Under the pieces are notes generated by a model. That model was not told where the DNA came from. It saw only the letters and a program-made list of their open reading frames with translations, and made no database searches. Both the position numbers and the translations under genes were made by a program. DNA of 13,959 nt from a virus (Duplodnaviria; Heunggongvirae; Uroviricota; Caudoviricetes), in IMG/VR virus record IMGVR_UViG_2740892233_000006, one strand, 5' to 3'. Positions 1,211-13,959 of this stretch are shown here, one piece after another. How positions within the stretch are numbered: position 1 is the stretch's first letter; each line of letters opens with the position of its first letter.

Positions 1211-2293
1211 ATGAAAAAATTAACAGTGGCAATTTCTGCTGTAGCTGCATCAGTACTGATGGCGATGTCTGCTCAGGCAGCTGAAATTTATAATAAAGAC
1301 AGTAACAAGCTGGATCTGTACGGGAAAGTTAATGCTAAGCACTACTTCTCCTCTAATGATGCAGATGATGGTGATACTACTTATGCCCGTCTTGGCTTCA
1401 AAGGTGAAACCCAAATCAACGATCAACTGACTGGTTTCGGTCAGTGGGAATATGAATTCAAAGGCAACCGCGCTGAATCTCAAGGTTCCTCCAAAGATAA
1501 AACCCGTCTTGCCTTCGCTGGCCTGAAATTCGGTGACTACGGCTCCATCGATTATGGCCGTAACTACGGTGTAGCATACGATATTGGTGCATGGACCGAC
1601 GTTCTGCCAGAATTCGGTGGCGATACCTGGACCCAAACAGATGTATTCATGACTGGTCGCACCACAGGTGTTGCAACTTATCGTAACAATGACTTCTTTG
1701 GTCTGGTTGATGGTCTGAACTTTGCTGCTCAGTATCAGGGTAAAAATGACCGTACTGACGTAACTCAAGCTAATGGTGATGGTTTCGGTTTCTCCACTAC
1801 TTATGAGTATGAAGGTTTCGGCGTAGGTGCAACCTATGCTAAATCTGATCGCACTAATAATCAGGTTATCTACGGTAACAACAGCCTGAATGCATCTGGT
1901 CAAAATGCTGAAGTATGGGCAGCTGGTCTGAAATATGATGCGAACAACATCTATCTGGCTACTACCTATTCTGAAACCCAAAACATGACTGTTTTTGGTA
2001 AAAACCATATTGCCAACAAAGCACAAAACTTCGAAGTAGTTGCACAATATCAGTTCGACTTCGGTCTGCGTCCGTCCGTTGCTTATCTGCAATCTAAAGG
2101 GAAAGACTTGGGTGCTTGGGGTGATCAGGACCTGGTTGAATATATTGATGTAGGTGCAACCTATTACTTCAACAAAAATATGTCCACTTTTGTTGACTAC
2201 AAAATCAACCTGATTGATAAGAGCGATTTCACGAAAGCATCTGGCGTTGCTACCGATGATATCGTTGCTGTAGGTATGGTTTACCAGTTCTAA
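1211..2293 (+). CDS. nmpC: outer-membrane general porin, prophage-encoded (NmpC/Lc type, OmpC/OmpF/PhoE family)
   Basis: 360 aa; signal peptide [23 protein letters not shown] then [16 protein letters not shown]...; C-terminus ...VGMVYQF. Lies between Q and holin on the opposite strand. Confidence 0.9.
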
Positions 2294-4576: not shown

Positions 4577-4978
4577 TTATTTTAACTCATAGATCAGACA
4601 GTCAACGATTTCTAAACCATTTACCATAGAATTAGAAACGCGAACTTTACCATCGTTGACTCTAGCAAATCCTTTTAACATTTTATAAACAAAAGCTGAA
4701 TCCCCCTTAGCCTCAATTGCTTCTAATGGTATCGGCTTATACTTTTTTGATATGCTATTTCTATTTATCTCACTGATTTTTCTATATATTTCTGCCGGCC
4801 CACGTTCTGAGAAGTCACTGATAACTAAAATATATCTCCAAGATAGATCTGGGTAATAAAACCACATTGCAGCATCAATAGTTAAATTCTGTAACTTGAG
4901 TTTTTTTAACAAAAATTGACCTGAGAATTCCATATCTTTTGTCAACTCTCTGCCGATTACCAGTGTGCTTTTACCCAT
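4577..4978 (-). CDS. hypothetical 133-aa protein, partner gene overlapping the HEPN-like gene end
   Basis: ATG at 4978 preceded by GGAG SD (7-nt spacing); overlaps upstream gene by 22 nt; AT-rich codon usage unlike flanking phage genes; no family recognised. Confidence 0.55.
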   Translation of the reverse strand: MGKSTLVIGRELTKDMEFSGQFLLKKLKLQNLTIDAAMWFYYPDLSWRYILVISDFSERGPAEIYRKISEINRNSISKKYKPIPLEAIEAKGDSAFVYKMLKGFARVNDGKVRVSNSMVNGLEIVDCLIYELK

Positions 4979-5373
4979 TTCAAAACTCCAGAATTTTGGT
5001 CACCTACAGCATCAAACAATTGTTCGGCCATAGCTTTACTTATGTTATTGTCGTATCTAAATTGCTCGCTCCAGTCTTTAACGACCGACCAGTTAATCTC
5101 CAACGAAACATCATTTTTTGCGTCAGCAATCAAAATTTGATGTAAGTTGGCAATTTTGAGAAGTTGCGACAAATCATGAGTATATGAATCATTTACGACT
5201 TTTTTGTTTGGAAACTCATGTTGTAAAAATGACTTGGCAATACAGGCCTTCAATGCACATTCAACTGCATACCCACAAAGATAATATGCACCATGAAAAA
5301 AGCCATGATCAAGCAAGCATTTGGCCTCATTAAGCCTAGTGTCAGATAATGCTTCAAGGTCGTTTTTATTCAT
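4957..5373 (-). CDS. HEPN-like domain protein (138 aa), candidate toxin/abortive-infection effector
   Basis: LLDHGFFHGAYYLCGYAVECALKACIAKS ... SYTHDLSQLL ... EQFRYDNNISKAMAEQLF matches the remembered HEPN (PF05168-type) pattern (helical A-x-E-x-ALKA, H-x-L-x-x-L, RY); TATAAT-like hexamers upstream on minus strand. Confidence 0.5.
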   Translation of the reverse strand: MNKNDLEALSDTRLNEAKCLLDHGFFHGAYYLCGYAVECALKACIAKSFLQHEFPNKKVVNDSYTHDLSQLLKIANLHQILIADAKNDVSLEINWSVVKDWSEQFRYDNNISKAMAEQLFDAVGDQNSGVLKWVKAHW

Positions 5374-5672: not shown

Positions 5673-6281
5673 TTACAGCCGTTCAGAACGTAAATGCGTC
5701 AATACTCGACTCCACTTATCATCCTGCCACGGCCGGAATTTTACATGTGCCGTTTCTCTGGCAAGGATTGCCTGTGCCTTATTGAGTATCCGGGGATATT
5801 CTTGTTCGATTGAAGTGAAGCGACCGGCTTCGCGGTGTTCTGCTACCTGAAGAAGCGGAGTGACGTTTTGGCAAGCGGTTAACATTGTGTCACTTGCCCG
5901 CCATAACCAAGCAAGTGTGCAAAGTTCGTTATCAGTGAATTGTTTTGTGATTGGGGATTGTTGAATTTCTCGATCGAGAATATCCAGCACCCAGCGGCGG
6001 AATTCTTTGGCCACAGGAGTGCGGGCGAACATGGCGATCAGATGGGCGCCACGGAGGGAGAAAATGCGAGTCTTCTTACGATAATTTCCTGAGGTCGTTG
6101 ATTCGACGACCTGAGACATTCCGTCAGTAAACTCATCAATATTTTTGTTGTAGATGTCGGTTACTGCTTTGGTGCTGGCATATTTTAATGCTGCCGCCAA
6201 TTCTTTGCTGGTAAACCAGATCTGGTTGTTGTGATTTATAGGAGTGAATTTTACATCGCGGAATGCGAGCTGAGTGACCAT
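5673..6281 (-). CDS. phage antirepressor-like protein (Bro-N / KilA-N / AntA-type N-terminal domain, unknown C-terminal domain)
   Basis: ORF track 5673..6518; domain-like sequence starts at internal Met: MVTQLAFRDVKFTPINHNNQIWFTSKELAAALKY...TRIFSLRGAHLIAMFARTPVAKEFRRWVLDIL. Start is uncertain (no good SD); a terminator at 6443-6466 argues against the 6518 start. Confidence 0.55.
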   Translation of the reverse strand: MVTQLAFRDVKFTPINHNNQIWFTSKELAAALKYASTKAVTDIYNKNIDEFTDGMSQVVESTTSGNYRKKTRIFSLRGAHLIAMFARTPVAKEFRRWVLDILDREIQQSPITKQFTDNELCTLAWLWRASDTMLTACQNVTPLLQVAEHREAGRFTSIEQEYPRILNKAQAILARETAHVKFRPWQDDKWSRVLTHLRSERL

Positions 6282-6442
6282 AGCGATAATCTCGTTTTGA
6301 ATTTGAGCTATCACCACCGACGACGCCAATCGACTGGTGGTGGACTGTGCAAGGTTGGCGTAACCGGTCAAAACGAAATCCGGCGCTTCCGAAGAAGCCC
6401 TCACACAGCCCACCATAATTTTTGTGTAGACGTGCACTGCGC

Positions 6443-6466
6443 ATAAAAAAACCGCGAACGCGGTTA
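6443..6466 (-). terminator. rho-independent terminator in the nin-type region (tR2-like position)
   Basis: Minus strand: AACCGCG-ttc-GCGGTT followed by TTTTTTTAT. Confidence 0.6.
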
Positions 6467-6712
6467 TGCGTCGTTTTGATGTCCGGGACGCCAATCCCGT
6501 GTGCCGATTTTGCGGCAACGCACAGAATATAGCGCCGGATAAATAATGTCGTCAACCCTTGCATATGGGGGGCGCGATGATCACTACTACCACCATAATC
6601 GCTCCAACTGTTGCAACTACTTTAGGCTAAGACATCACGATTTCCATATCACCTTTAGCCGCCAGACAAACAGAGACTCCCTGTTCTTGGCTGCCAAAAA
6701 CACCGAATGCAA

Positions 6713-7556: not shown

Positions 7557-7589
7557 TCAAGTAACGAAGAATCTTTCTTTGCCCGTCAT
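7557..7589 (-). pseudogene. ren: ren 5' remnant (MTGKERFFVT*)
   Basis: ATG overlaps the P stop codon (GTATGA) as ren does in lambda; first residues MTGKE match remembered lambda Ren, then stop after 10 codons. Confidence 0.4.
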
Positions 7590-8431
7590 ACACTTGCTCC
7601 TTTCAGCCCAAACTTAGCTTTGATTTCTGCGATCTTCGCCAGAGCCTGTGCACGATTTAGAGGTCTACCGCCCATAACAGGAAGTTGTTTTACTGGTTCA
7701 GGTATCGTCTCACCACGGTTAATTCGCGCTGTCATACAGGTCAGTTCATCGGCAGCCTTGCGCCGTAATTCCGCGTCAGTCAGCGCATTGGCCCGCATGT
7801 TCTGGTACAGGTTGGTAACCAACCAGTAATGCGCGTTCGATTTCCACGGATAAGACTCTGCATCCGGATACAGGCCACGCTTCCGGCAATACTCGTAAAC
7901 CATATCAACCAGCTCGCTGACGTTTGGCAGCCCGGCGTTAACGGATGCTTCTTCCCGGCACCATGCAACAAACTGCCCGGGTGATGGCAGAAATGGTCTA
8001 TTCTGCCGACGGGCAACACGCATTCCGGCGCTCACCTGTTCCATCGTGGTGATCCCGTTTTCCCGGAAAGCCAGAACCCACTGGCGGCGGATTTCGTTCA
8101 GTTCGTTCTGGTCACGATTAGCCAGGCTCGCCGGGAAAGTTGCCAGTAACTGGCTGAATACACCGTTGATTATCTGCGCTACCTGCTGTACCTGCGGCTT
8201 TTCGTCGTACTGTTCCGGCATGTTGTTGGCGATCCGACGCATCTGCTCACNNNNNNNNNNGTTAGCCAGGCTCGCCGGGAAAGTTGCCAGTAACTGGCTG
8301 AACACACCGTTGATGATCTGCGCTACCTGCTGTACCTGAGGCTTTTCGTCGTACTGTTCCGGCATGTTGTTGGCGATCCGACGCATCTGCTCACGGTCAA
8401 AGTTAACCATCTGTGCGGCGATGTTTTTCAT
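7586..8431 (-). CDS. P: replication protein P (lambda P-like helicase loader); reading frame contains scaffold gap 8251-8260 with duplicated flank
   Basis: MKNIAAQMVNFDREQMRRIANNMPEQYDEKPQVQQ... ...KIAEIKAKFGLKGASV; the 281-aa ORF is inflated by an artefactual repeat of EQMRRIANN...ASLAN around the N run. Confidence 0.85.
   Translation of the reverse strand: MKNIAAQMVNFDREQMRRIANNMPEQYDEKPQVQQVAQIINGVFSQLLATFPASLANXXXXEQMRRIANNMPEQYDEKPQVQQVAQIINGVFSQLLATFPASLANRDQNELNEIRRQWVLAFRENGITTMEQVSAGMRVARRQNRPFLPSPGQFVAWCREEASVNAGLPNVSELVDMVYEYCRKRGLYPDAESYPWKSNAHYWLVTNLYQNMRANALTDAELRRKAADELTCMTARINRGETIPEPVKQLPVMGGRPLNRAQALAKIAEIKAKFGLKGASV
8251..8260. other. 10-nt N run (scaffold gap) with about 130 bp near-identical duplicated flanks
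   Basis: Sequence before the gap (gattagccaggctcgcc...atctgctcac) recurs after it with 3 mismatches. Confidence 0.95.
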
Positions 8432-9503
8432 AGATCCACCCCGTAAATCCAGTCTGTGTTTGTCAGGTCGAGTTTTGGTTTGCTGGCTGTCACGGCTGCC
8501 TGTTGCTTGTTACGGTTGATTTCGAGCTGGGTCCACTTGTCGCGGAGTTTGGCCGGACTNNNNNNNNNNAATCCACCCCGTAAATCCAGTCAGTGTTTGT
8601 CAGGTCGAGTTTTGGTTTGCTGGCTGTCACGCCTGCCTGTTGCTTGTTACGGTTGATTTCGAGCTGGGTCCACTTGTCGCGGAGTTTGGCCGGACTCAGC
8701 ACGTTACCGGACCAGAAGTTGTCCTGGCAGGCCCAGCGGAAAAGCACACACATATCGCGGTGGTTACGTCCGTCACGTTCACGCATCAGGCGGATATCGT
8801 TAGCCCACCCTGCAAAATTCGGTTTTCTGGCTGATGGTGCGATGGTCTTCACCATGTCAAACATCCACTCTGCGGCGGTCAGGTCTTCTGCTGTTCCCCA
8901 CTTGCTGCCGCTCTGAATTGCAGCATCCGGTTTAACCACAGAAAGATCGTTTTCTGGCTGGTCAGAGGATTCGCCAGAATTCTCGGACGAATAATCTTTT
9001 CTTTTTTCTTTTGTAATAGTGTCTTTTGTGTCCCCCTGTTTTGAGGGATAGCAATCCCCTAATTTGAGGGATGTTTTATCCCTCGTTTTAGGGGATTTTC
9101 CCTCGTTTTGAGGGATGTCCCTCATTTTAGGGGAACCTCCCTCGTTTTGAGGGATGCACCATTCTGAGATGTTTTTATTTGGTCCAAACATGCCGCCTTG
9201 CTGCTTGATAATATTCATTCTGACGAGTTCTAACTTGGCTTCATTGCACCGTTTGACAGGTAACTTTGTAATCTCGCTAAGTTGAGAATCGGTGATTCTG
9301 TCCATTGGTTTATTCCACCCATAGGTTTTACGCAGAATGGCAAGCAGCACTTTAAACTGTCGCTTGGTCAGATCTGCGCCTGAATAGGCCTCAAGCAGCA
9401 TATTTGATAGTCTGGCGTAACCATCATCGAGATCTGCCACATTACGCTCCTGTTCGGCAAAGTTACCTCTGCCGAAGTTGAGTATTTTTGCTGTATTTGT
9501 CAT
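8428..9503 (-). CDS. O: replication initiator O, lambda type (contains ori iterons; frame interrupted by scaffold gap 8560-8569)
   Basis: MTNTAKILNFGRGNFAEQERNVADLDDGYARLSNMLLEAYSGADLTKRQFKVLLAILRKTYGWNKPMDR...; GGAG SD; the C-terminus ...TDWIYGVDL with stop overlapping the P ATG lies in the segment below the gap. Confidence 0.8.
8560..8569. other. 10-nt N run (scaffold gap) with about 125 bp near-identical duplicated flanks
   Basis: O C-terminal coding sequence appears on both sides of the gap with 2 mismatches. Confidence 0.95.
9031..9156. repeat. lambda-type replication origin iterons, six copies inside the O gene
   Basis: Six TCCCTC-N5/6-GAGGGA-type palindromic units at about 20-bp spacing, followed by an AT-rich stretch. 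Confidence 0.8.
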
Positions 9504-9535
9504 AATGACTCCTGTGGATTGATCCAGTAATTCCC

Positions 9536-9677
9536 TCAGAATTGCATATCAATTTGCTTAGAGTCCCCGGCGGCCACCGGGGATTTTTTCTTTGTGATTT
9601 CATCAAGCGCATACTTAAAAGCCCTGCTAATCGGACTGATGTCTGATGCCATTCCGAAAGCACACAAGACCGAAGCA
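9536..9677 (-). CDS. cII-like gene, 3' fragment only (5' end lost in scaffold gap)
   Basis: Frame ending at stop 9536-9538 encodes ...ISRAFKYALDEITKKKSPVAAGDSKQIDMQF*, resembling the remembered lambda CII C-terminus (...ILTNKKRPAATERSEQIQMEF); directly upstream of O. Confidence 0.45.
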
Positions 9678-9687
9678 ATAAATCTCC
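9678..9687. other. 10-nt N run (scaffold gap) joining an O 3' end to a cII-like 3' fragment
   Basis: Flanks are not duplicates here: one side is O C-terminal coding sequence, the other a cII-like gene end. Confidence 0.95.
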
Positions 9688-10571
9688 NNNNNNNNNNCGA
9701 CTGTCACGCCAGCCTGTTGCTTGTTCCGGTTGATTTCGAGCTGGGTCCACTTGTCGCGGAGTTTGGCCGGACTCAGCACGTTACCGGACCAGAAGTTGTC
9801 CTGGCAGGCCCAGCGGAACAGTACACACATGTCGCGGTGGTTACGTCCATCACGTTCACGCATCAGACGGATATCGTTAGCCCACCCTGCAAAATTCGGT
9901 TTTCTGGCTGATGGCGCGATGGTCTTCACCATGTCAAACATCCACTCTGCGGCGGTCAGGTCTTCTGCTGTCCCCCACTTGCTGCCGCTCTGAATCGCAG
10001 CATCCGCTTTCACCACAGGAAGGTCGTTTTCTGGCAGGTCAGAGGATTCGCCAGAATTCTCGGACGAATAAGGTTTTATATTGTCTTTTGTTAGTTTGTC
10101 TTTTGTGTTTACCTGATTCGGGTAAGTGCCTTTACCTGATTTGGGTAAACTTTTCTTACCTGATTCAGGTAAATTTACCTCTTTCAGGTAAACTTTATTT
10201 TTCTTACCTGATTCGGGTAATGTTGACCATTCACTGACCACATTATTAATGCCGATATTCCGCCCGCTCTGAATAAAAATCCCACGCTTTACCAGAACAC
10301 TTTTTGCAGCAGAACACTTGTGCGGCAATATCCCGGTCAACTCGGAAAGTTGCTCGTTGCTCACCCAGTCCAGTTTTTTATTAAAGCCATATGTTTTGCG
10401 CATGACAGCCAGGAAGACCAGAAGCTGGTGCTGTGTTAATCCGGCCAGCATTACAGCTTCCAGCAACTCATTTGCAATGCGCGTATAACCATCATCGAGA
10501 TCTGCCACGCGCGGCTCCTTTTGTGCCGCATCCGGCACTGGAAAATTGAATATCTCAGCAGTGTTTGCCAT
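9688..10571 (-). CDS. replication initiator O, second type (different N-terminal iteron-binding domain; 3' end lost in gap)
   Basis: Start MANTAEIFNFPVPDAAQKEPRVADLDDGYTRIANELLEAV... with GGAGG SD (ORF track start 10661 is too long); C-terminal domain identical in sequence to the lambda-type O. Confidence 0.75.
10108..10222. repeat. second replication origin iteron set, five copies of TTACCTGATTCGGGTAA-like palindromes inside the second O gene
   Basis: Five units (TTACC-N7-GGTAA) at 23-29 bp spacing, read directly. Confidence 0.75.
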
Positions 10572-10657
10572 AATTCCTCCCGCAATGAGTGTGTTACGAT
10601 TTGCACCTGAAAGTCGGTTCTGTTCCAGCAGACCGGCTTTCGCCATTTCTGAACCTG

Positions 10658-11197
10658 TCATATCGCCCCCAGCATGGTAGTAACCATCGCCATCAATGGA
10701 CCAGCCAGCTCTGGGTCCACACGAAACATCGACACAATACCTTCACTAATTTCCTTCAGTTTCTGGTGGCGTGGTGCGTTGAGAATGACAGCCTGTTTTG
10801 CCTCACTGAGTTCCTTTTCCATTTCAGCCAACCTAGCCATGAAGCTATCCTGCTCAACCAGGTAACCGCGATATTCCAGCGGTAGTACCGCCAGAATTGC
10901 CGGGGTCAGTTCACGCACGTTATTTCGGTATTTTTCAGAATCGAATTTGTTATCGAGGAAGCGGAACAGCTTCTGGCGTGTACGGCTGACATCATCAGGG
11001 AAATCGATGGTGCCGCCGCCCTGCTCCCGATACTCATTCACAATGAGTGTGGCAACGACATCCTGATTATCTACAGCCGACCAGGCGCGGACGGCATCAC
11101 GGATTTTTTCGTGGCCTGGCACCTGTTTTGTTTGAGAACGATTTATCACCGCAGTCGGGCTAAATCCGCTAGTCTGTTGGTATGGAAGTGGTTGCAT
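10658..11197 (-). CDS. YdaT-like protein (occupies the cII position downstream of cro)
   Basis: 179 aa; GGAG SD; segment SRTRQKLFRFLDNKFDSEKYRNNVRELTPAILAVLPLEY resembles remembered Rac YdaT; gene order cro-like then this gene then O. Confidence 0.55.
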   Translation of the reverse strand: MQPLPYQQTSGFSPTAVINRSQTKQVPGHEKIRDAVRAWSAVDNQDVVATLIVNEYREQGGGTIDFPDDVSRTRQKLFRFLDNKFDSEKYRNNVRELTPAILAVLPLEYRGYLVEQDSFMARLAEMEKELSEAKQAVILNAPRHQKLKEISEGIVSMFRVDPELAGPLMAMVTTMLGAI

Positions 11198-11242
11198 AAT
11201 TGACTCCTTTAGTTTGAATTGACTGTTAAGTTGATTGCTTAT

Positions 11243-11255
11243 TGTTAAAGAGCGT
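11243..11255 (-). promoter_or_regulatory. boxA-like element (CGCTCTTTAACAA on minus strand) between cro-like and YdaT-like genes, nutR position
   Basis: Close match to remembered boxA consensus (rrn boxA TGCTCTTTAACAA; lambda CGCTCTTA); no clear boxB hairpin follows. Confidence 0.4.
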
Positions 11256-11266
11256 GAAATGGAAAT

Positions 11267-11497
11267 TTAAGCTGCGTTCTTTTCGGTGTGTGGAAACAAC
11301 TTCGGAAGATCCGGGCGAATCTGGTATGCCTTCACTACTCCACCAGTAGCCGTAACAATGCTGCCGACATGTTCAGGGGATACCTTTGCTTTGTTGTGAA
11401 GCCACTTATAGACGGCCTGCTGTGAAACTTCGCAGGCAGCGCCCAGTTTCTTTTGTGAACCAACGATATTGATCGCTGTTTTGATAGCTGGGTTCAT
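11267..11497 (-). CDS. Cro-like / YdaS-like small HTH regulator
   Basis: 76 aa MNPAIKTAINIVGSQKKLGAACEVSQQAVYKWLHNKAKVSPEHV...; GGAGG SD; divergent from cI across an operator region. Confidence 0.7.
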   Translation of the reverse strand: MNPAIKTAINIVGSQKKLGAACEVSQQAVYKWLHNKAKVSPEHVGSIVTATGGVVKAYQIRPDLPKLFPHTEKNAA

Positions 11498-11601
11498 AAC
11501 AACCTCCGTGGTTAATTTGAATCAAGATTAAAACTATGGTTGTTTTTAGTCAACAACCATTTTCGTTTGATGGAATAAAACCTTGGTTGTACATTTGGAC
11601 T
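11498..11601. promoter_or_regulatory. OR-type operator region with divergent pR (minus) and pRM (plus) candidates
   Basis: Perfect palindrome TGGTTGTT-N7-AACAACCA (11537-11559) overlapping a minus-strand TTGACT -35; related half-sites at 11498-11515 and 11584-11600; plus-strand TTGATG-N17-TACATT ends about 6 nt before the cI ATG. Confidence 0.6.
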
Positions 11602-12291
11602 ATGAAAACAACACTCTCAGAAAGACTTAAAGAAGCCAGATTAGCGCGAGGCCTTACACAAAAGGCGCTTGGGGATTTGGTCGGGGTTAGCCAGGCTGCT
11701 ATTCAGAAAATCGAAACAGGGAAAGCTAATCAAACAACTAAAATCGTGGAGATCGCGAACGCTTTGGGTGTGCGCGCAGAATGGTTATCTTCTGGCGTTG
11801 GAAATATGTCAGACAGTACAGTGCAACCAATACAATCAACTGTCAGCCATTCCAAATACTTCAAGATTGACGTTCTTGATATAGAAGTCAGTGCTGGGCC
11901 GGGAGTCATCAACCGTGAGTTTGTAGAAGTTCTACGCTCGGTTGAGTACTCGTTTGACGATGCTCGTCACATGTTCGATGGTAGGAAGGCAGAAAATATC
12001 CGCATCATTAACGTGCGTGGTGACAGCATGTCAGGAACGATCGAACCAGGTGATCTGCTGTTCGTTGATATCACGGTTAAATCTTTCGACGGTGATGGTA
12101 TCTATGCATTTCTGTACGACGACACCGCCCATGTAAAGCGCCTGCAAATGATGAAGGATAAACTGCTGGTTATCTCTGATAACAAGAGCTACTCACCGTG
12201 GGACCCTATCGAGAAAGACGAGATGAACCGGGTATTCATATTCGGTAAGGTTATTGGGAGCATGCCGCAGACGTACAGAAAACACGGATAA
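11602..12291 (+). CDS. cI: CI-type prophage repressor (N-terminal HTH, C-terminal LexA/S24-like autopeptidase domain)
   Basis: Start at MKTTLSERLKEARLARGLTQKALGDLVGVSQAAIQKIETG...; C-terminal domain has GDSM (Ser) and HVKRL (Lys) dyad context; ORF track start 11536 would run through the operators. Confidence 0.85.
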   Translation: MKTTLSERLKEARLARGLTQKALGDLVGVSQAAIQKIETGKANQTTKIVEIANALGVRAEWLSSGVGNMSDSTVQPIQSTVSHSKYFKIDVLDIEVSAGPGVINREFVEVLRSVEYSFDDARHMFDGRKAENIRIINVRGDSMSGTIEPGDLLFVDITVKSFDGDGIYAFLYDDTAHVKRLQMMKDKLLVISDNKSYSPWDPIEKDEMNRVFIFGKVIGSMPQTYRKHG

Positions 12292-12372
12292 TCAGCCGCG
12301 TGTTGATGAGGCTTTTGGGTAATACGCTGAAGAAAATACCTTATAAAAAATAACATTACGGGAAAGGCAAAA

Positions 12373-12636
12373 ATGAGTAATAAAACACTTGTTAAAAAAT
12401 CAAATAACTGTGTCGATGCATACGCCGACGCGTTTGGCTACTCTTCGTTTGGTGACGGCTCTCAGCGCCTAGGTTCAATTTCTTTTTTTCATAATGTAAC
12501 TGAATGGCCTGTTGATGAAAGTGACGATGTTGAGAACATAAAGTACAACATTGCAACCATTAGAATGCCCGAAGAATTGATGCTTAAATTGGCTGACTTC
12601 ATTCGCGACCAGCATGACAAAGCTAAAACAAACTAA
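12373..12636 (+). CDS. hypothetical 87-aa acidic protein, first gene downstream of cI (rexA position)
   Basis: MSNKTLVKKSNNCVDAYADAFGYSSFGDGSQRLGSISFFHNVTEWPVDESDDVEN...; AT-rich; same strand as cI. Confidence 0.55.
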   Translation: MSNKTLVKKSNNCVDAYADAFGYSSFGDGSQRLGSISFFHNVTEWPVDESDDVENIKYNIATIRMPEELMLKLADFIRDQHDKAKTN

Positions 12637-12648
12637 TCGTAATTAATT

Positions 12649-13092
12649 ATGAAACACGATTATTACGAAGCTCCAAACCTAAATGATAAAATTGCAAAGG
12701 CGGCAGAATCATTTTGTTTGCACTCCAGTGCGTCTTCCCAGCTAGCAGGTATATCTGGAAAAAGATGGGACATGCTACAATCAAGTGGTAGCAGTGGGTC
12801 TGGGAGTGATAACATGCCTGAAAAAGTTGCAAAACTGGAGTCCGATGTTGCTCATATCAAACGAGACGTTGATGAACTTAAAACAGACGTTAAAGCTATC
12901 GACAAAAATATGATAACTATTCTTGCACGTCTGGACTCTATAAAAGAATCCTTAACAAACAAGCCATCAAGTGATGCTGTCGATAGAAAGATTTCAGACG
13001 CAAAGCTTGCGGTATTGCTTGGTGTTCCAGCAATCATCGCTGCAGGAACAGGACTTTATAAGCTATCAATGTACTTTTTCTTTAGTGCTTAA
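12649..13092 (+). CDS. hypothetical membrane-anchored coiled-coil protein (147 aa; alternative start at 12811 gives 93 aa)
   Basis: Ser/Gly linker SSGSSGSGSDN, heptad-like EKVAKLESDVAHIKRDVDELKTDVKAIDKNMITILARLDSIKESL, C-terminal hydrophobic helix AVLLGVPAIIAAGTGLYKL. ATG 12 nt after the preceding stop; GGGAG SD before the internal MPEKV start. Confidence 0.55.
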   Translation: MKHDYYEAPNLNDKIAKAAESFCLHSSASSQLAGISGKRWDMLQSSGSSGSGSDNMPEKVAKLESDVAHIKRDVDELKTDVKAIDKNMITILARLDSIKESLTNKPSSDAVDRKISDAKLAVLLGVPAIIAAGTGLYKLSMYFFFSA

Positions 13093-13166
13093 GAAAATGC
13101 TCGCACCCTTGCATTAGGTAAAGCGATTTTTCATTCCCCATTACCCTCGCTCTTAACCAATCATCT

Positions 13167-13196
13167 AAACCCGGCCACCGTGCCGGGTTTTCTTTT
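13167..13196 (+). terminator. rho-independent terminator ending the cI / accessory-gene operon
   Basis: AAACCCGG-ccaccgtg-CCGGGTTT stem-loop followed by TCTTTTG. Confidence 0.7.
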
Positions 13197-13292
13197 GCCC
13201 TCCCCTCATCATACACCGTTCAAAAAAACCACCACGACCTCGCTTCAGTTATCGCTATGCGATGCAAGTCACAAAATAAATCCATCTTAAAT

Positions 13293-13366
13293 ACAACCAG
13301 TTATATCTAAAACAACCAACAAAACAACTTTTGTTGTTGACGATAAAACAACTATAGTTTTAAATG
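13293..13366 (+). promoter_or_regulatory. candidate OL/pL: cluster of ACAACCA repressor half-sites with TTGACG-N17-TTAAAT promoter
   Basis: ACAACCA at 13293-13299 and 13311-13318; inverted repeat AACAAC-TTTT-GTTGTT at 13323-13338 overlapping -35 TTGACG (13337-13342); -10-like TTAAAT at 13360-13365. Same half-site as the OR palindrome. Confidence 0.5.
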
Positions 13367-13471
13367 AGTTCATCGCAACAACACAACGATACGGCAATCA
13401 CCTGATTCACCGTTGCGATGACCGCTTAGATCCGCAGCTTGAATTTCAGCAGGCTTCGGGGAGTGCGAGGG

Positions 13472-13534
13472 ATGAAACGGACGCGTGAACGTCGGTGTGA
13501 CCAGCTGAAATCAACTCAACATTTCATACCTTAG
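13472..13534 (+). pseudogene. N-like antiterminator N-terminal remnant: 20-codon ORF with Arg-rich motif ending at in-frame TAG
   Basis: MKRTRERRCDQLKSTQHFIP*; RTRERRCDQ resembles the remembered lambda N motif RRRERRAEKQ; GGGAG SD upstream; same frame as the downstream 13559..13849 ORF. Confidence 0.4.
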
Positions 13535-13642
13535 TCGCTTCAACGAGGCGGCTTAGTTATGACAACCGGCGGCCATCCACCGCCTGAATACGCGCAGAAG
13601 TCTTTATATGTTCAGCAGCCCAGCTTACGGGCAGGAGTTTTT

Positions 13643-13849
13643 ATGGTTCATCAACATTACGGAACGCAGACCGTTAATCGCGGTGCGGTCATGCCAGGAA
13701 TGCTGGTCAAACGCAAAGATGGTACCTGGACTGCATCAGCTAATTTACGCGGACGACTTTATCTGCATCGCGGCATTGAGCGCACTTATACCCGTGACTT
13801 GCTCGTGGAAGTTTTTCTCGACGGACGCGGCAACGCTCTGAATCACTAA
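13643..13849 (+). CDS. hypothetical small basic protein (68 aa from strong-SD start; ORF track alternative 13559, 96 aa), between N-like remnant and gam
   Basis: AGGAG-N5-ATG at 13643: MVHQHYGTQTVNRGAVMPGMLVKRKDGTWTASANLRGRLYLHRGIERTYTRDLLVEVFLDGRGNALNH. Confidence 0.5.
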   Translation: MVHQHYGTQTVNRGAVMPGMLVKRKDGTWTASANLRGRLYLHRGIERTYTRDLLVEVFLDGRGNALNH

Positions 13850-13924
13850 TCCCCTTTCCTGTTTTCCGAATCAGCCTGGCATTCCGCGGGCGATTTTTTC
13901 ACAGCCATTTTCAGGAGTTCAGCC

Positions 13925-13959
13925 ATGAACGCTTATTACATTCAGGATCGTCTTGAGGC
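13925..13959 (+). CDS. gam: Gam (RecBCD inhibitor), first 11 codons only, truncated by window end
   Basis: AGGAG SD then MNAYYIQDRLEA, matching the remembered N-terminus of lambda Gam (short form); upstream in-frame codons ...AIFRSSA resemble the lambda GamL extension. Confidence 0.55.
   Translation, partial: MNAYYIQDRLE

Follow-up and report, generated by a model that had tools for sequence, protein, structure and literature searches.

A repressor-linked two-gene cassette with exchangeable partner units, a candidate exclusion module of enterobacterial prophages

The stretch of DNA analysed here, IMG/VR virus record IMGVR_UViG_2740892233_000006 (13,959 nucleotides (nt), hereafter the window), carries downstream of its prophage repressor gene a pair of small plus-strand genes, A (12373..12636) and B (12649..13092), which on comparative grounds form a strong candidate for a phage defence system. 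In about 100 loci gathered and compared by script, we show at the level of sequence that the coiled-coil and membrane module of B is conserved and that the N-terminal domain of B and the partner gene preceding it are swapped together as a unit: at least five partner/N-domain types, mutually unrelated, sit on one conserved module. The two proteins are undescribed in the libraries and literature that we searched. An earlier note made from the letters of the window had singled out the pair as a possible exclusion or abortive-infection system, and the analysis below both extends that proposal and sets limits to it.

A profile built from the last 92 residues of B retrieves 284 proteins, all from Enterobacterales and all unnamed or hypothetical, with a single automated label, 'Hemolysin XhlA', among them. 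At each phage locus the module follows, in the same reading frame, a variable N-terminal domain of 31-76 amino acids (aa) and a Gly- or Ser-rich linker, and the partner gene ahead of B is tightly spaced, at -20 to +17 nt from it, a spacing that suggests translational coupling and is one point in favour of the reading given below. The window type (T1, shared with loci L001, L003 and L040) combines partner A, 87-98 aa, with an N-domain that starts MKHDYYEAPNL, and the second type (T2; L005, L014, L041-L048 and L055-L064) a partner of 136-160 aa (phrog_5893) with an N-domain of 33-47 aa. In T3 (L008, L049, L065-L071 and L076) an 84-98-aa partner (phrog_12039) accompanies an N-domain of 75 aa, in T4 (L016 and L073) a Cys-rich partner of 119 aa (phrog_4293) one of 31 aa, and in T5 (L070) a partner of 88 aa one of 45 aa. 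Known domains were not found in the partner proteins of any type. The T1, T3 and T5 partners resemble one another in length, in an N-terminal [ST]xN[YC] motif followed a few residues on by AD, and in a C-terminus predicted as a strand and then a helix; profile-profile comparison of A with the 84-98-aa partners returns an end-to-end colinear alignment at an E value of only 0.053, and common descent of these three partner types is suggestive.

The units are also shuffled among modules. At least four different coiled-coil/membrane modules carry the T1 unit, namely the one of the window, a second subfamily in Salmonella phage UPF_BP1 and two further modules in Serratia and Raoultella, and the T4 unit is found on module subfamily I in L016 and on subfamily II in Salmonella phage 29485. 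Between the window and UPF_BP1, similarity at the DNA level ends at 12821, just beyond Met56 of B, and the linker thus looks like a recombination joint. One E. coli protein of 134 aa (P0070) is an in-frame deletion hybrid in which residues 1-57 of A run into the C-terminal module of a UPF_BP1-type B, with the fusion point at ENIK, a short sequence common to both genes; the cassette can therefore also decay through recombination between A and B. In Citrobacter prophages (L089-L092, 5474-5854) a third co-oriented gene, encoding a 126-aa protein without a match in Pfam, follows B ahead of a convergent gene, and some members of the family may be three-gene units. A partnerless short form with only eight upstream codons is found on the chromosome of Pantoea (L012 and L015), beside genes for an AraC-type regulator and an EamA transporter; this stand-alone gene implies that the module by itself is tolerated and not intrinsically lethal. 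Pantoea sp. alder81 has a single short-form gene at this chromosomal site (L012, 4974-5276), and 'Ca. Pantoea communis' has at the same site (L013, 4481-5220) two tandem coiled-coil/membrane genes of 99 and 136 aa followed by phage-like genes, an arrangement that may have arisen when a prophage integrated in or beside the host homologue and duplicated it.

Gene A of the window encodes an 87-aa soluble, mildly acidic protein (phrog_4231, E 7e-54; hypothetical protein WP_000066829.1 in RefSeq) with an isoelectric point of 4.96 and 14 acidic against 10 basic residues. Its best 19-residue hydropathy is only 0.55 and it therefore has no membrane segment, in keeping with the cytoplasmic look that the earlier note had described. 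A conserved motif, KKxNNCVDxYxDxFGYSS, runs through the family, and the protein is predicted to fold into a beta-sheet with a helix after it at the C-terminus, at a mean predicted local distance difference test score (pLDDT) of 78. The family is very small: a word-indexed search gives 10 matches, and a deep search among 1.8 billion proteins gives 8 cluster representatives, all of them from A's own family. Neither Pfam, NCBIfam nor PADLOC yields any match to A. Against a variant of 80% identity, A differs by 28 synonymous and 19 non-synonymous codon changes and, judged by these, is under purifying selection.

Gene B begins in the same frame as A and 12 nt after the A stop codon (12636), and its long form of 147 aa (phrog_3556, E 1.5e-58; hypothetical protein WP_012565042.1) is predicted, from homologue alignments and a structure model, as a tail-anchored coiled-coil membrane protein. 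Its parts are a variable N-terminal domain (aa 1-44, 12649..12780) with a short helix predicted at aa 11-23; a Ser/Gly linker (aa 45-55, 12781..12813) with SSGSSGSGS at aa 45-53; a coiled coil (aa 56-103, 12814..12957) seen in the modelled helix and in generic coiled-coil Pfam matches; and a single C-terminal membrane helix (aa 119-141, 13003..13071) placed by hydropathy, model and alignment. The coiled coil shows 13 consecutive hydrophobic a/d positions (residues 60, 63, 67, 70, 74, 77, 81, 84, 88, 91, 95, 98 and 102), an unbroken 3-4 spacing that reads as six perfect heptads, and among B homologues an indel of exactly seven residues, one heptad (alignment columns 101-107), is consistent with selection preserving the heptad register. 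An invariant K-P-S motif (aa 105-107) precedes the one hydrophobic stretch of the protein (about aa 118-141, hydropathy 1.8). The structure model, of low confidence (pLDDT 56), has helices at 11-23, 56-103 and 110-146 and leaves 24-55 disordered. B is accordingly a predicted N-in, tail-anchored coiled-coil protein: the prediction places all of A and nearly all of B in the cytoplasm, with a few residues at most past the membrane helix. The account of the pair in the earlier note (the 12-nt spacing, the linker, the heptad coiled coil, the one C-terminal helix) agrees with ours throughout; the AT-richness that it remarked on is real and modest, A and B having 39-40% G+C where cI has 46% and the whole window 45%.

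Toward the same 80% variant, the C-terminal part of B differs by 23 synonymous and 16 non-synonymous changes and by this measure is under purifying selection, whereas its N-domain has 19 non-synonymous changes to 6 synonymous ones and so counts, on the same codon comparison, as fast-evolving; it is still open and in frame, and third-position bias is retained against a more distant variant. Of 5426 complete E. coli genomes, 205 carry the A-B pair, 151 of them at 99% identity or more and about 50 at roughly 80%. The PHROG matches (both of unknown function), this distribution and the mostly synonymous change together show that A and B are genuine genes, not chance open reading frames.

Where B starts had been flagged as uncertain, and rightly so. 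ATG 12649 lacks a Shine-Dalgarno sequence and is probably reached through coupling to A, and ATG 12814, Met56, follows GGGAG (12802-12806) by 7 nt. A start at Met56 would yield a nested form of 92 aa (12814..13092, plus strand), made up of the coiled coil and membrane helix only, that is, of the conserved family module. The Met that opens the coiled coil is kept throughout the family as ATG, or as GTG in one subtype, and GGAGG lies 4-11 nt before it in 19 of 23 distinct linkers, with 3.95 expected from synonymous-codon resampling with E. coli Gly usage; 22 of the 23 have a 4-nt core upstream (5.05 expected). By lineage, GGAGG is found in seven of eight as against 1.3 expected (P 4e-6, with lineages treated as independent), and GGA GGN is used even in linkers with two glycines only. 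We infer from this conservation that B may yield both a 147-aa long and a 92-aa short form. Gene callers disagree systematically on the start within the family, giving products of either 90-93 or 125-175 aa, and many of the 90-93-aa 'homologues' reflect callers that often choose the internal start. The RNA around the internal start has no unusual structure (z -1.1). A nested pair of this kind has precedent in sieB/esc of P22 and lambda, an abortive-infection gene of the immunity region for which both coding sequences are annotated in NC_002371.

The places that the cassette occupies form a second line of evidence. At the lambdoid loci examined it always lies directly after the repressor gene and in the same orientation, which holds for S24-type and for short helix-turn-helix repressors with differing upstream replication modules, and N, KilR, Gam or Exo VIII is found downstream. 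In P22-like phages of Salmonella, E. coli and Serratia (L001, L040 and the Serratia locus L097) the T1 cassette instead follows mnt and faces the ejection-protein gene 16, the place at which the P22 record has mnt, orf59a and sieA. The third slot is among tail genes: a Raoultella cassette lies on the strand opposite chaperone and tape-measure genes, and in Salmonella phage 29485 the cassette is inserted between the major tail and chaperone genes. Since it recurs in repressor, mnt/sieA and tail-gene slots, the cassette is, as far as gene order can tell, an autonomous moron that moves among slots known for exclusion genes expressed in the lysogen.

Within the window, A and B lie inside the immunity region, like rexA-rexB in lambda. 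Over 11500-13250 the sequence has 100% identity to a DLP12-like lambdoid prophage that adjoins tRNA-Arg in E. coli O26:H11 str. 11368, and this identity extends to many further O26 and B1 strains. From left to right the window holds lysis genes, an ompC-like porin gene, Q and the nin region; then replication genes O and P, a YdaT-type cII-like gene and a minus-strand YdaS-type cro; and finally plus-strand cI, A, B, a terminator and a KilR-family gene, after which gam, bet and exo follow past the window end. The repressor (11602..12291, plus strand; S24 family peptidase, 229 aa, in RefSeq) matches the Pfam families HTH_3 (E 6.5e-13) and Peptidase_S24 (E 1.5e-18) and is presumed to be the upstream member of a putative cI-A-B transcript. 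The 81-nt plus-strand spacer between cI and A (12292..12372), with GGAAAGG 5 nt before the A start codon, contains no plus-strand terminator that we could find, and a sigma-70-like promoter was not called on the plus strand anywhere in 11200-13959, which leaves a promoter of its own unsupported for A-B and for short B alike; an Rfam scan of 12292-13400 returned no RNA family. An intrinsic terminator (13167..13200, plus strand; a 9-bp stem with six G-C pairs and then a T run at 13167-13190), 75 nt past the B stop codon, closes the unit and is the strong terminator reported earlier. Beyond it, three AAACAAC half-sites flank a TTGACG hexamer at 13310..13352 (no strand assigned). Because this cluster surrounds the hexamer, the same half-site recurs in the cro-cI gap, and nine copies occur in the whole window against 3.4 expected, 13310-13352 is probably oL/pL, the outer border of the immunity region. 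The rexAB position assigned to the pair in the earlier note thus holds, with repressor domains upstream and operator-like repeats downstream. The first gene beyond the oL/pL-like region (13643-13849, plus strand) encodes a 68-aa KilR-family protein (PF27398 in homologous loci), and an N-like antiterminator gene is not evident at 13200-13640 in this prophage.

Sequence searches against known proteins were largely negative. Neither A nor B reaches threshold in Pfam or NCBIfam, searches of the PDB sequences return generic coiled coils only, and in PADLOC-DB v2 A has no match and the matches of B are confined to coiled-coil regions (of PbeC, LmuB and JetC), at E values of 0.004 or above. Direct and profile comparisons of A and B with RexA, RexB and SieB of lambda and with SieA, orf59a, SieB, gp17 and the holin of P22 give no similarity: for RexA and RexB all phmmer, blastp and profile scores lie below 1 bit, and the best SieA profile score, 3.9 bits (E 0.034 in an eight-sequence database), falls short of homology. 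The resemblance to XhlA that the earlier note had offered as a loose impression is borne out in architecture and not in Pfam homology, where B scores 12.1 bits against PF10779 (E 0.23; gathering threshold 34.7); four of 25 B homologues match, at a best E value of 0.004, and more distant cassette partners do not match at all. Among PHROGs, 10 of 16 members match the 'hemolysin' family phrog_937, at a best E value of 5.8e-6, and 3 of 16 the 'hemolysin' family phrog_1193, scores that coiled-coil composition may inflate in both cases. The traits of type II toxin-antitoxin systems (a DNA-binding antitoxin, a toxin domain) are absent from A, B and the alternative partners. The proteins are not among the entries of the DefensePredictor supplements, the module occurs in none of the PhiR phages deposited by Brenes & Laub 2025, and the Tai and SNIPE systems are unrelated.

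Together, the position downstream of the repressor, the sieA and tail-gene slots, the partner/N-domain polymorphism, the coupling and the nested start lead us to read A-B as an exclusion module of some kind expressed from the prophage, which we hold to be probable, if by no wide measure. As regards mechanism, a Rex-like, membrane-abortive one is a possibility to which we give somewhat less than even weight; the weak similarity of the module to XhlA-type 'hemolysin' PHROGs counts in its favor. In such a scheme A-B would be a moron cassette expressed in the prophage together with the repressor. A and the N-domain of long B would bind each other in the cytoplasm and together constitute a specificity or sensor part tethered to the membrane, where long and short B might co-assemble through the coiled coil at the inner membrane. 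Binding of an infecting-phage protein to the sensor part would then alter the assembly, and the membrane module could permeabilise or depolarise the membrane so that infection aborts. More tentative still, and on the whole rather doubtful, is the broader picture of A-B as the type example of widespread, undescribed enterobacterial plug-and-play immunity cassettes, in which hypervariable sensor units, each a partner protein with the N-domain of B, would be recombined at the Gly/Ser linker onto interchangeable tail-anchored membrane effectors and a ribosome-binding site encoded in the linker would supply a short isoform that sets or restrains effector activity, as Esc does for SieB.

Several points weigh against the exclusion reading. 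Homology to any known defence protein was not found, and a literature search by accession, locus tag and PHROG id returned no account of A or B; contact between A and B is suggested by their co-variation, use of the internal start is argued from comparative sequence, and the prophage that carries the cassette bears insertion sequence (IS) elements in O26. Of the exclusion system that the earlier note had hypothesised, the positional argument stands (the rexAB-like place, to which the sieA slot is now added), whereas support by homology to RexA/B, SieA, SieB or PADLOC entries fails. Its idea of a small sensor or regulator paired with a membrane effector fits the co-variation of partner and N-domain against a conserved module.

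The tolerance of the lone module in Pantoea bears on more than one of the alternatives. Fitting an anchor better than a toxin, it suggests that the coiled-coil/membrane module may be an anchor or scaffold, and it suits a SieA-like entry block in which tethered A and B, at the cytoplasmic face of the inner membrane, would obstruct the DNA conduit or a host factor and the cell would survive. That a homologous cassette replaces orf59a-sieA in P22-like phages, and that the cassette also adjoins tape-measure and chaperone genes, point the same way, as does the report of the HK97 gp15 exclusion moron beside such genes. We nonetheless consider an entry block quite unlikely: A and nearly all of B are predicted to be cytoplasmic, the entry blockers known to us are polytopic or exposed to the periplasm, and the nested short form would be left without a role. 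The stand-alone Pantoea homologue is also a normal chromosomal gene, as might be expected if the pair served lysogenic conversion or prophage maintenance without relation to other phages, for instance as an addiction pair, an induction modulator or a tail-anchored membrane or stress factor of the ElaB/YqjD type. Presumed co-transcription with the repressor in the absence of a defence domain is compatible with such a role, and a small upstream protein followed by a larger membrane protein superficially resembles an antitoxin-toxin pair. Hypervariable, cassette-swapped partner/N-domain units would, however, be unexpected in housekeeping or addiction modules, as would recurrence in three moron slots of unrelated phage types, and the partners have no DNA-binding antitoxin domain; we judge a non-defence role unlikely.

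An accessory lysis protein, that is, a true XhlA-type holin partner acting in the lytic cycle of the phage, is by contrast very improbable. The short form does have XhlA architecture, and there are the weak phrog_937 and phrog_1193 'hemolysin' matches (E 5.8e-6 at best), yet the Pfam XhlA cutoff is never reached, and about 12 kb separate the cassette from the holin, endolysin and spanin genes, which lie at the opposite side of the window in a Q-dependent context of their own. Furthermore, the orientation that the cassette shares with cI, the terminator that closes it and its location upstream of the oL/pL-like repeats imply that leftward early transcription would run away from it. Exclusion by a prophage-expressed module remains our preferred reading.

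If that reading is true and phages are indeed excluded, the cassette represents a defence family, compact at about 720 bp, that escapes the defence finders now in use. It occurs in about 4% of complete E. coli genomes, the enterohaemorrhagic E. coli (EHEC) O26 lineage included, and in many prophages of Salmonella, Klebsiella, Citrobacter, Serratia and Pantoea. The natural swaps provide ready specificity variants, with one sensor on different effectors and different sensors on one effector, and the putative nested isoform lends itself to a simple test of what keeps a membrane effector silent. The repressor-downstream, mnt/sieA and tail-gene moron slots trade the same cargo, and a Gly-rich protein linker could, on the codon evidence above, double as a conserved internal ribosome-binding site.

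The remainder of the window holds further features of note. Gaps of 10 N at 8251-8260, 8560-8569 and 9688-9697 interrupt the replication genes (7586-10661), stretches of P-like and O-like proteins are repeated on either side of these gaps, and two O-like open reading frames (8490-9503 and 9627-10661) have near-identical C-terminal halves; since the O26 reference has one O and one P gene there, the duplication looks like a scaffolding or assembly artefact, not biology. On the minus strand, a C4 antisense RNA (Rfam, 82.5 bits) and isrK (64.1 bits) at 6333-6517 lie directly upstream of an antirepressor-like gene with a P22AR C-terminal domain (5673-6281), which by sequence similarity is a c4-ant immunity module of the P1/P7 type inside a lambdoid prophage. 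In the nin region, a HEPN-domain protein of 138 aa (4957-5373, minus strand) overlaps by 22 nt a 133-aa protein (4577-4978) to which no family was assigned, and the two may form a HEPN-type toxin-antitoxin or defence pair. An OmpC/NmpC-type porin gene (1211-2293, plus strand), which has the lysis genes on one side and the Q antiterminator gene on the other, is, as in DLP12, a moron of the classical sort.

Repressor-linked two-gene exclusion modules are a classical kind of system, and a close parallel to A-B is RexAB of lambda. In both cases two genes directly follow cI in the same orientation and ahead of oL, such that the order cI-A-B-terminator-operator repeats matches cI-rexA-rexB-oL; in both cases one product is soluble and the other located in the inner membrane (as predicted for A-B), and a logic of sensor and membrane effector has been proposed. 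Conversely, RexA has 279 aa against the 87 of A, with no sequence similarity, RexB has four to five hydrophobic segments (five hydropathy windows of at least 1.6) where B has one, and we know of neither a modular variable domain nor a nested start in Rex. The 92-aa short form resembles XhlA of the Bacillus prophage PBSX in being small, with an N-terminal coiled coil and a C-terminal membrane helix, from which B departs by the 55 extra residues that include its variable domain, by its partner gene and by its location outside the lysis cassette: lysis genes lie at 407-667 and beyond the left edge of the window, and A-B in the immunity region. The candidate B isoforms further recall the holin-antiholin pair S107/S105 of lambda, two membrane proteins made from one gene by alternative starts, and by that logic the longer form of B could regulate the shorter; S107 and S105, however, differ by 2 residues as against 55 for B and are late lysis proteins, and a comparison of the P22 holin with B found no similarity. 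SieB/Esc likewise pairs a full-length protein with a C-terminal product read in frame from an internal start, for which B has a candidate, although SieB is a single gene without a partner and without sequence similarity to B. SieA of P22 is an inner-membrane protein expressed from the prophage (PMC10883804). It is a single polytopic protein of about four hydrophobic segments with no similarity to A or B, and its slot, after mnt and convergent with gene 16, is the one taken by a homologous cassette in P22-like phages, whereas the cassette of the window follows cI instead.

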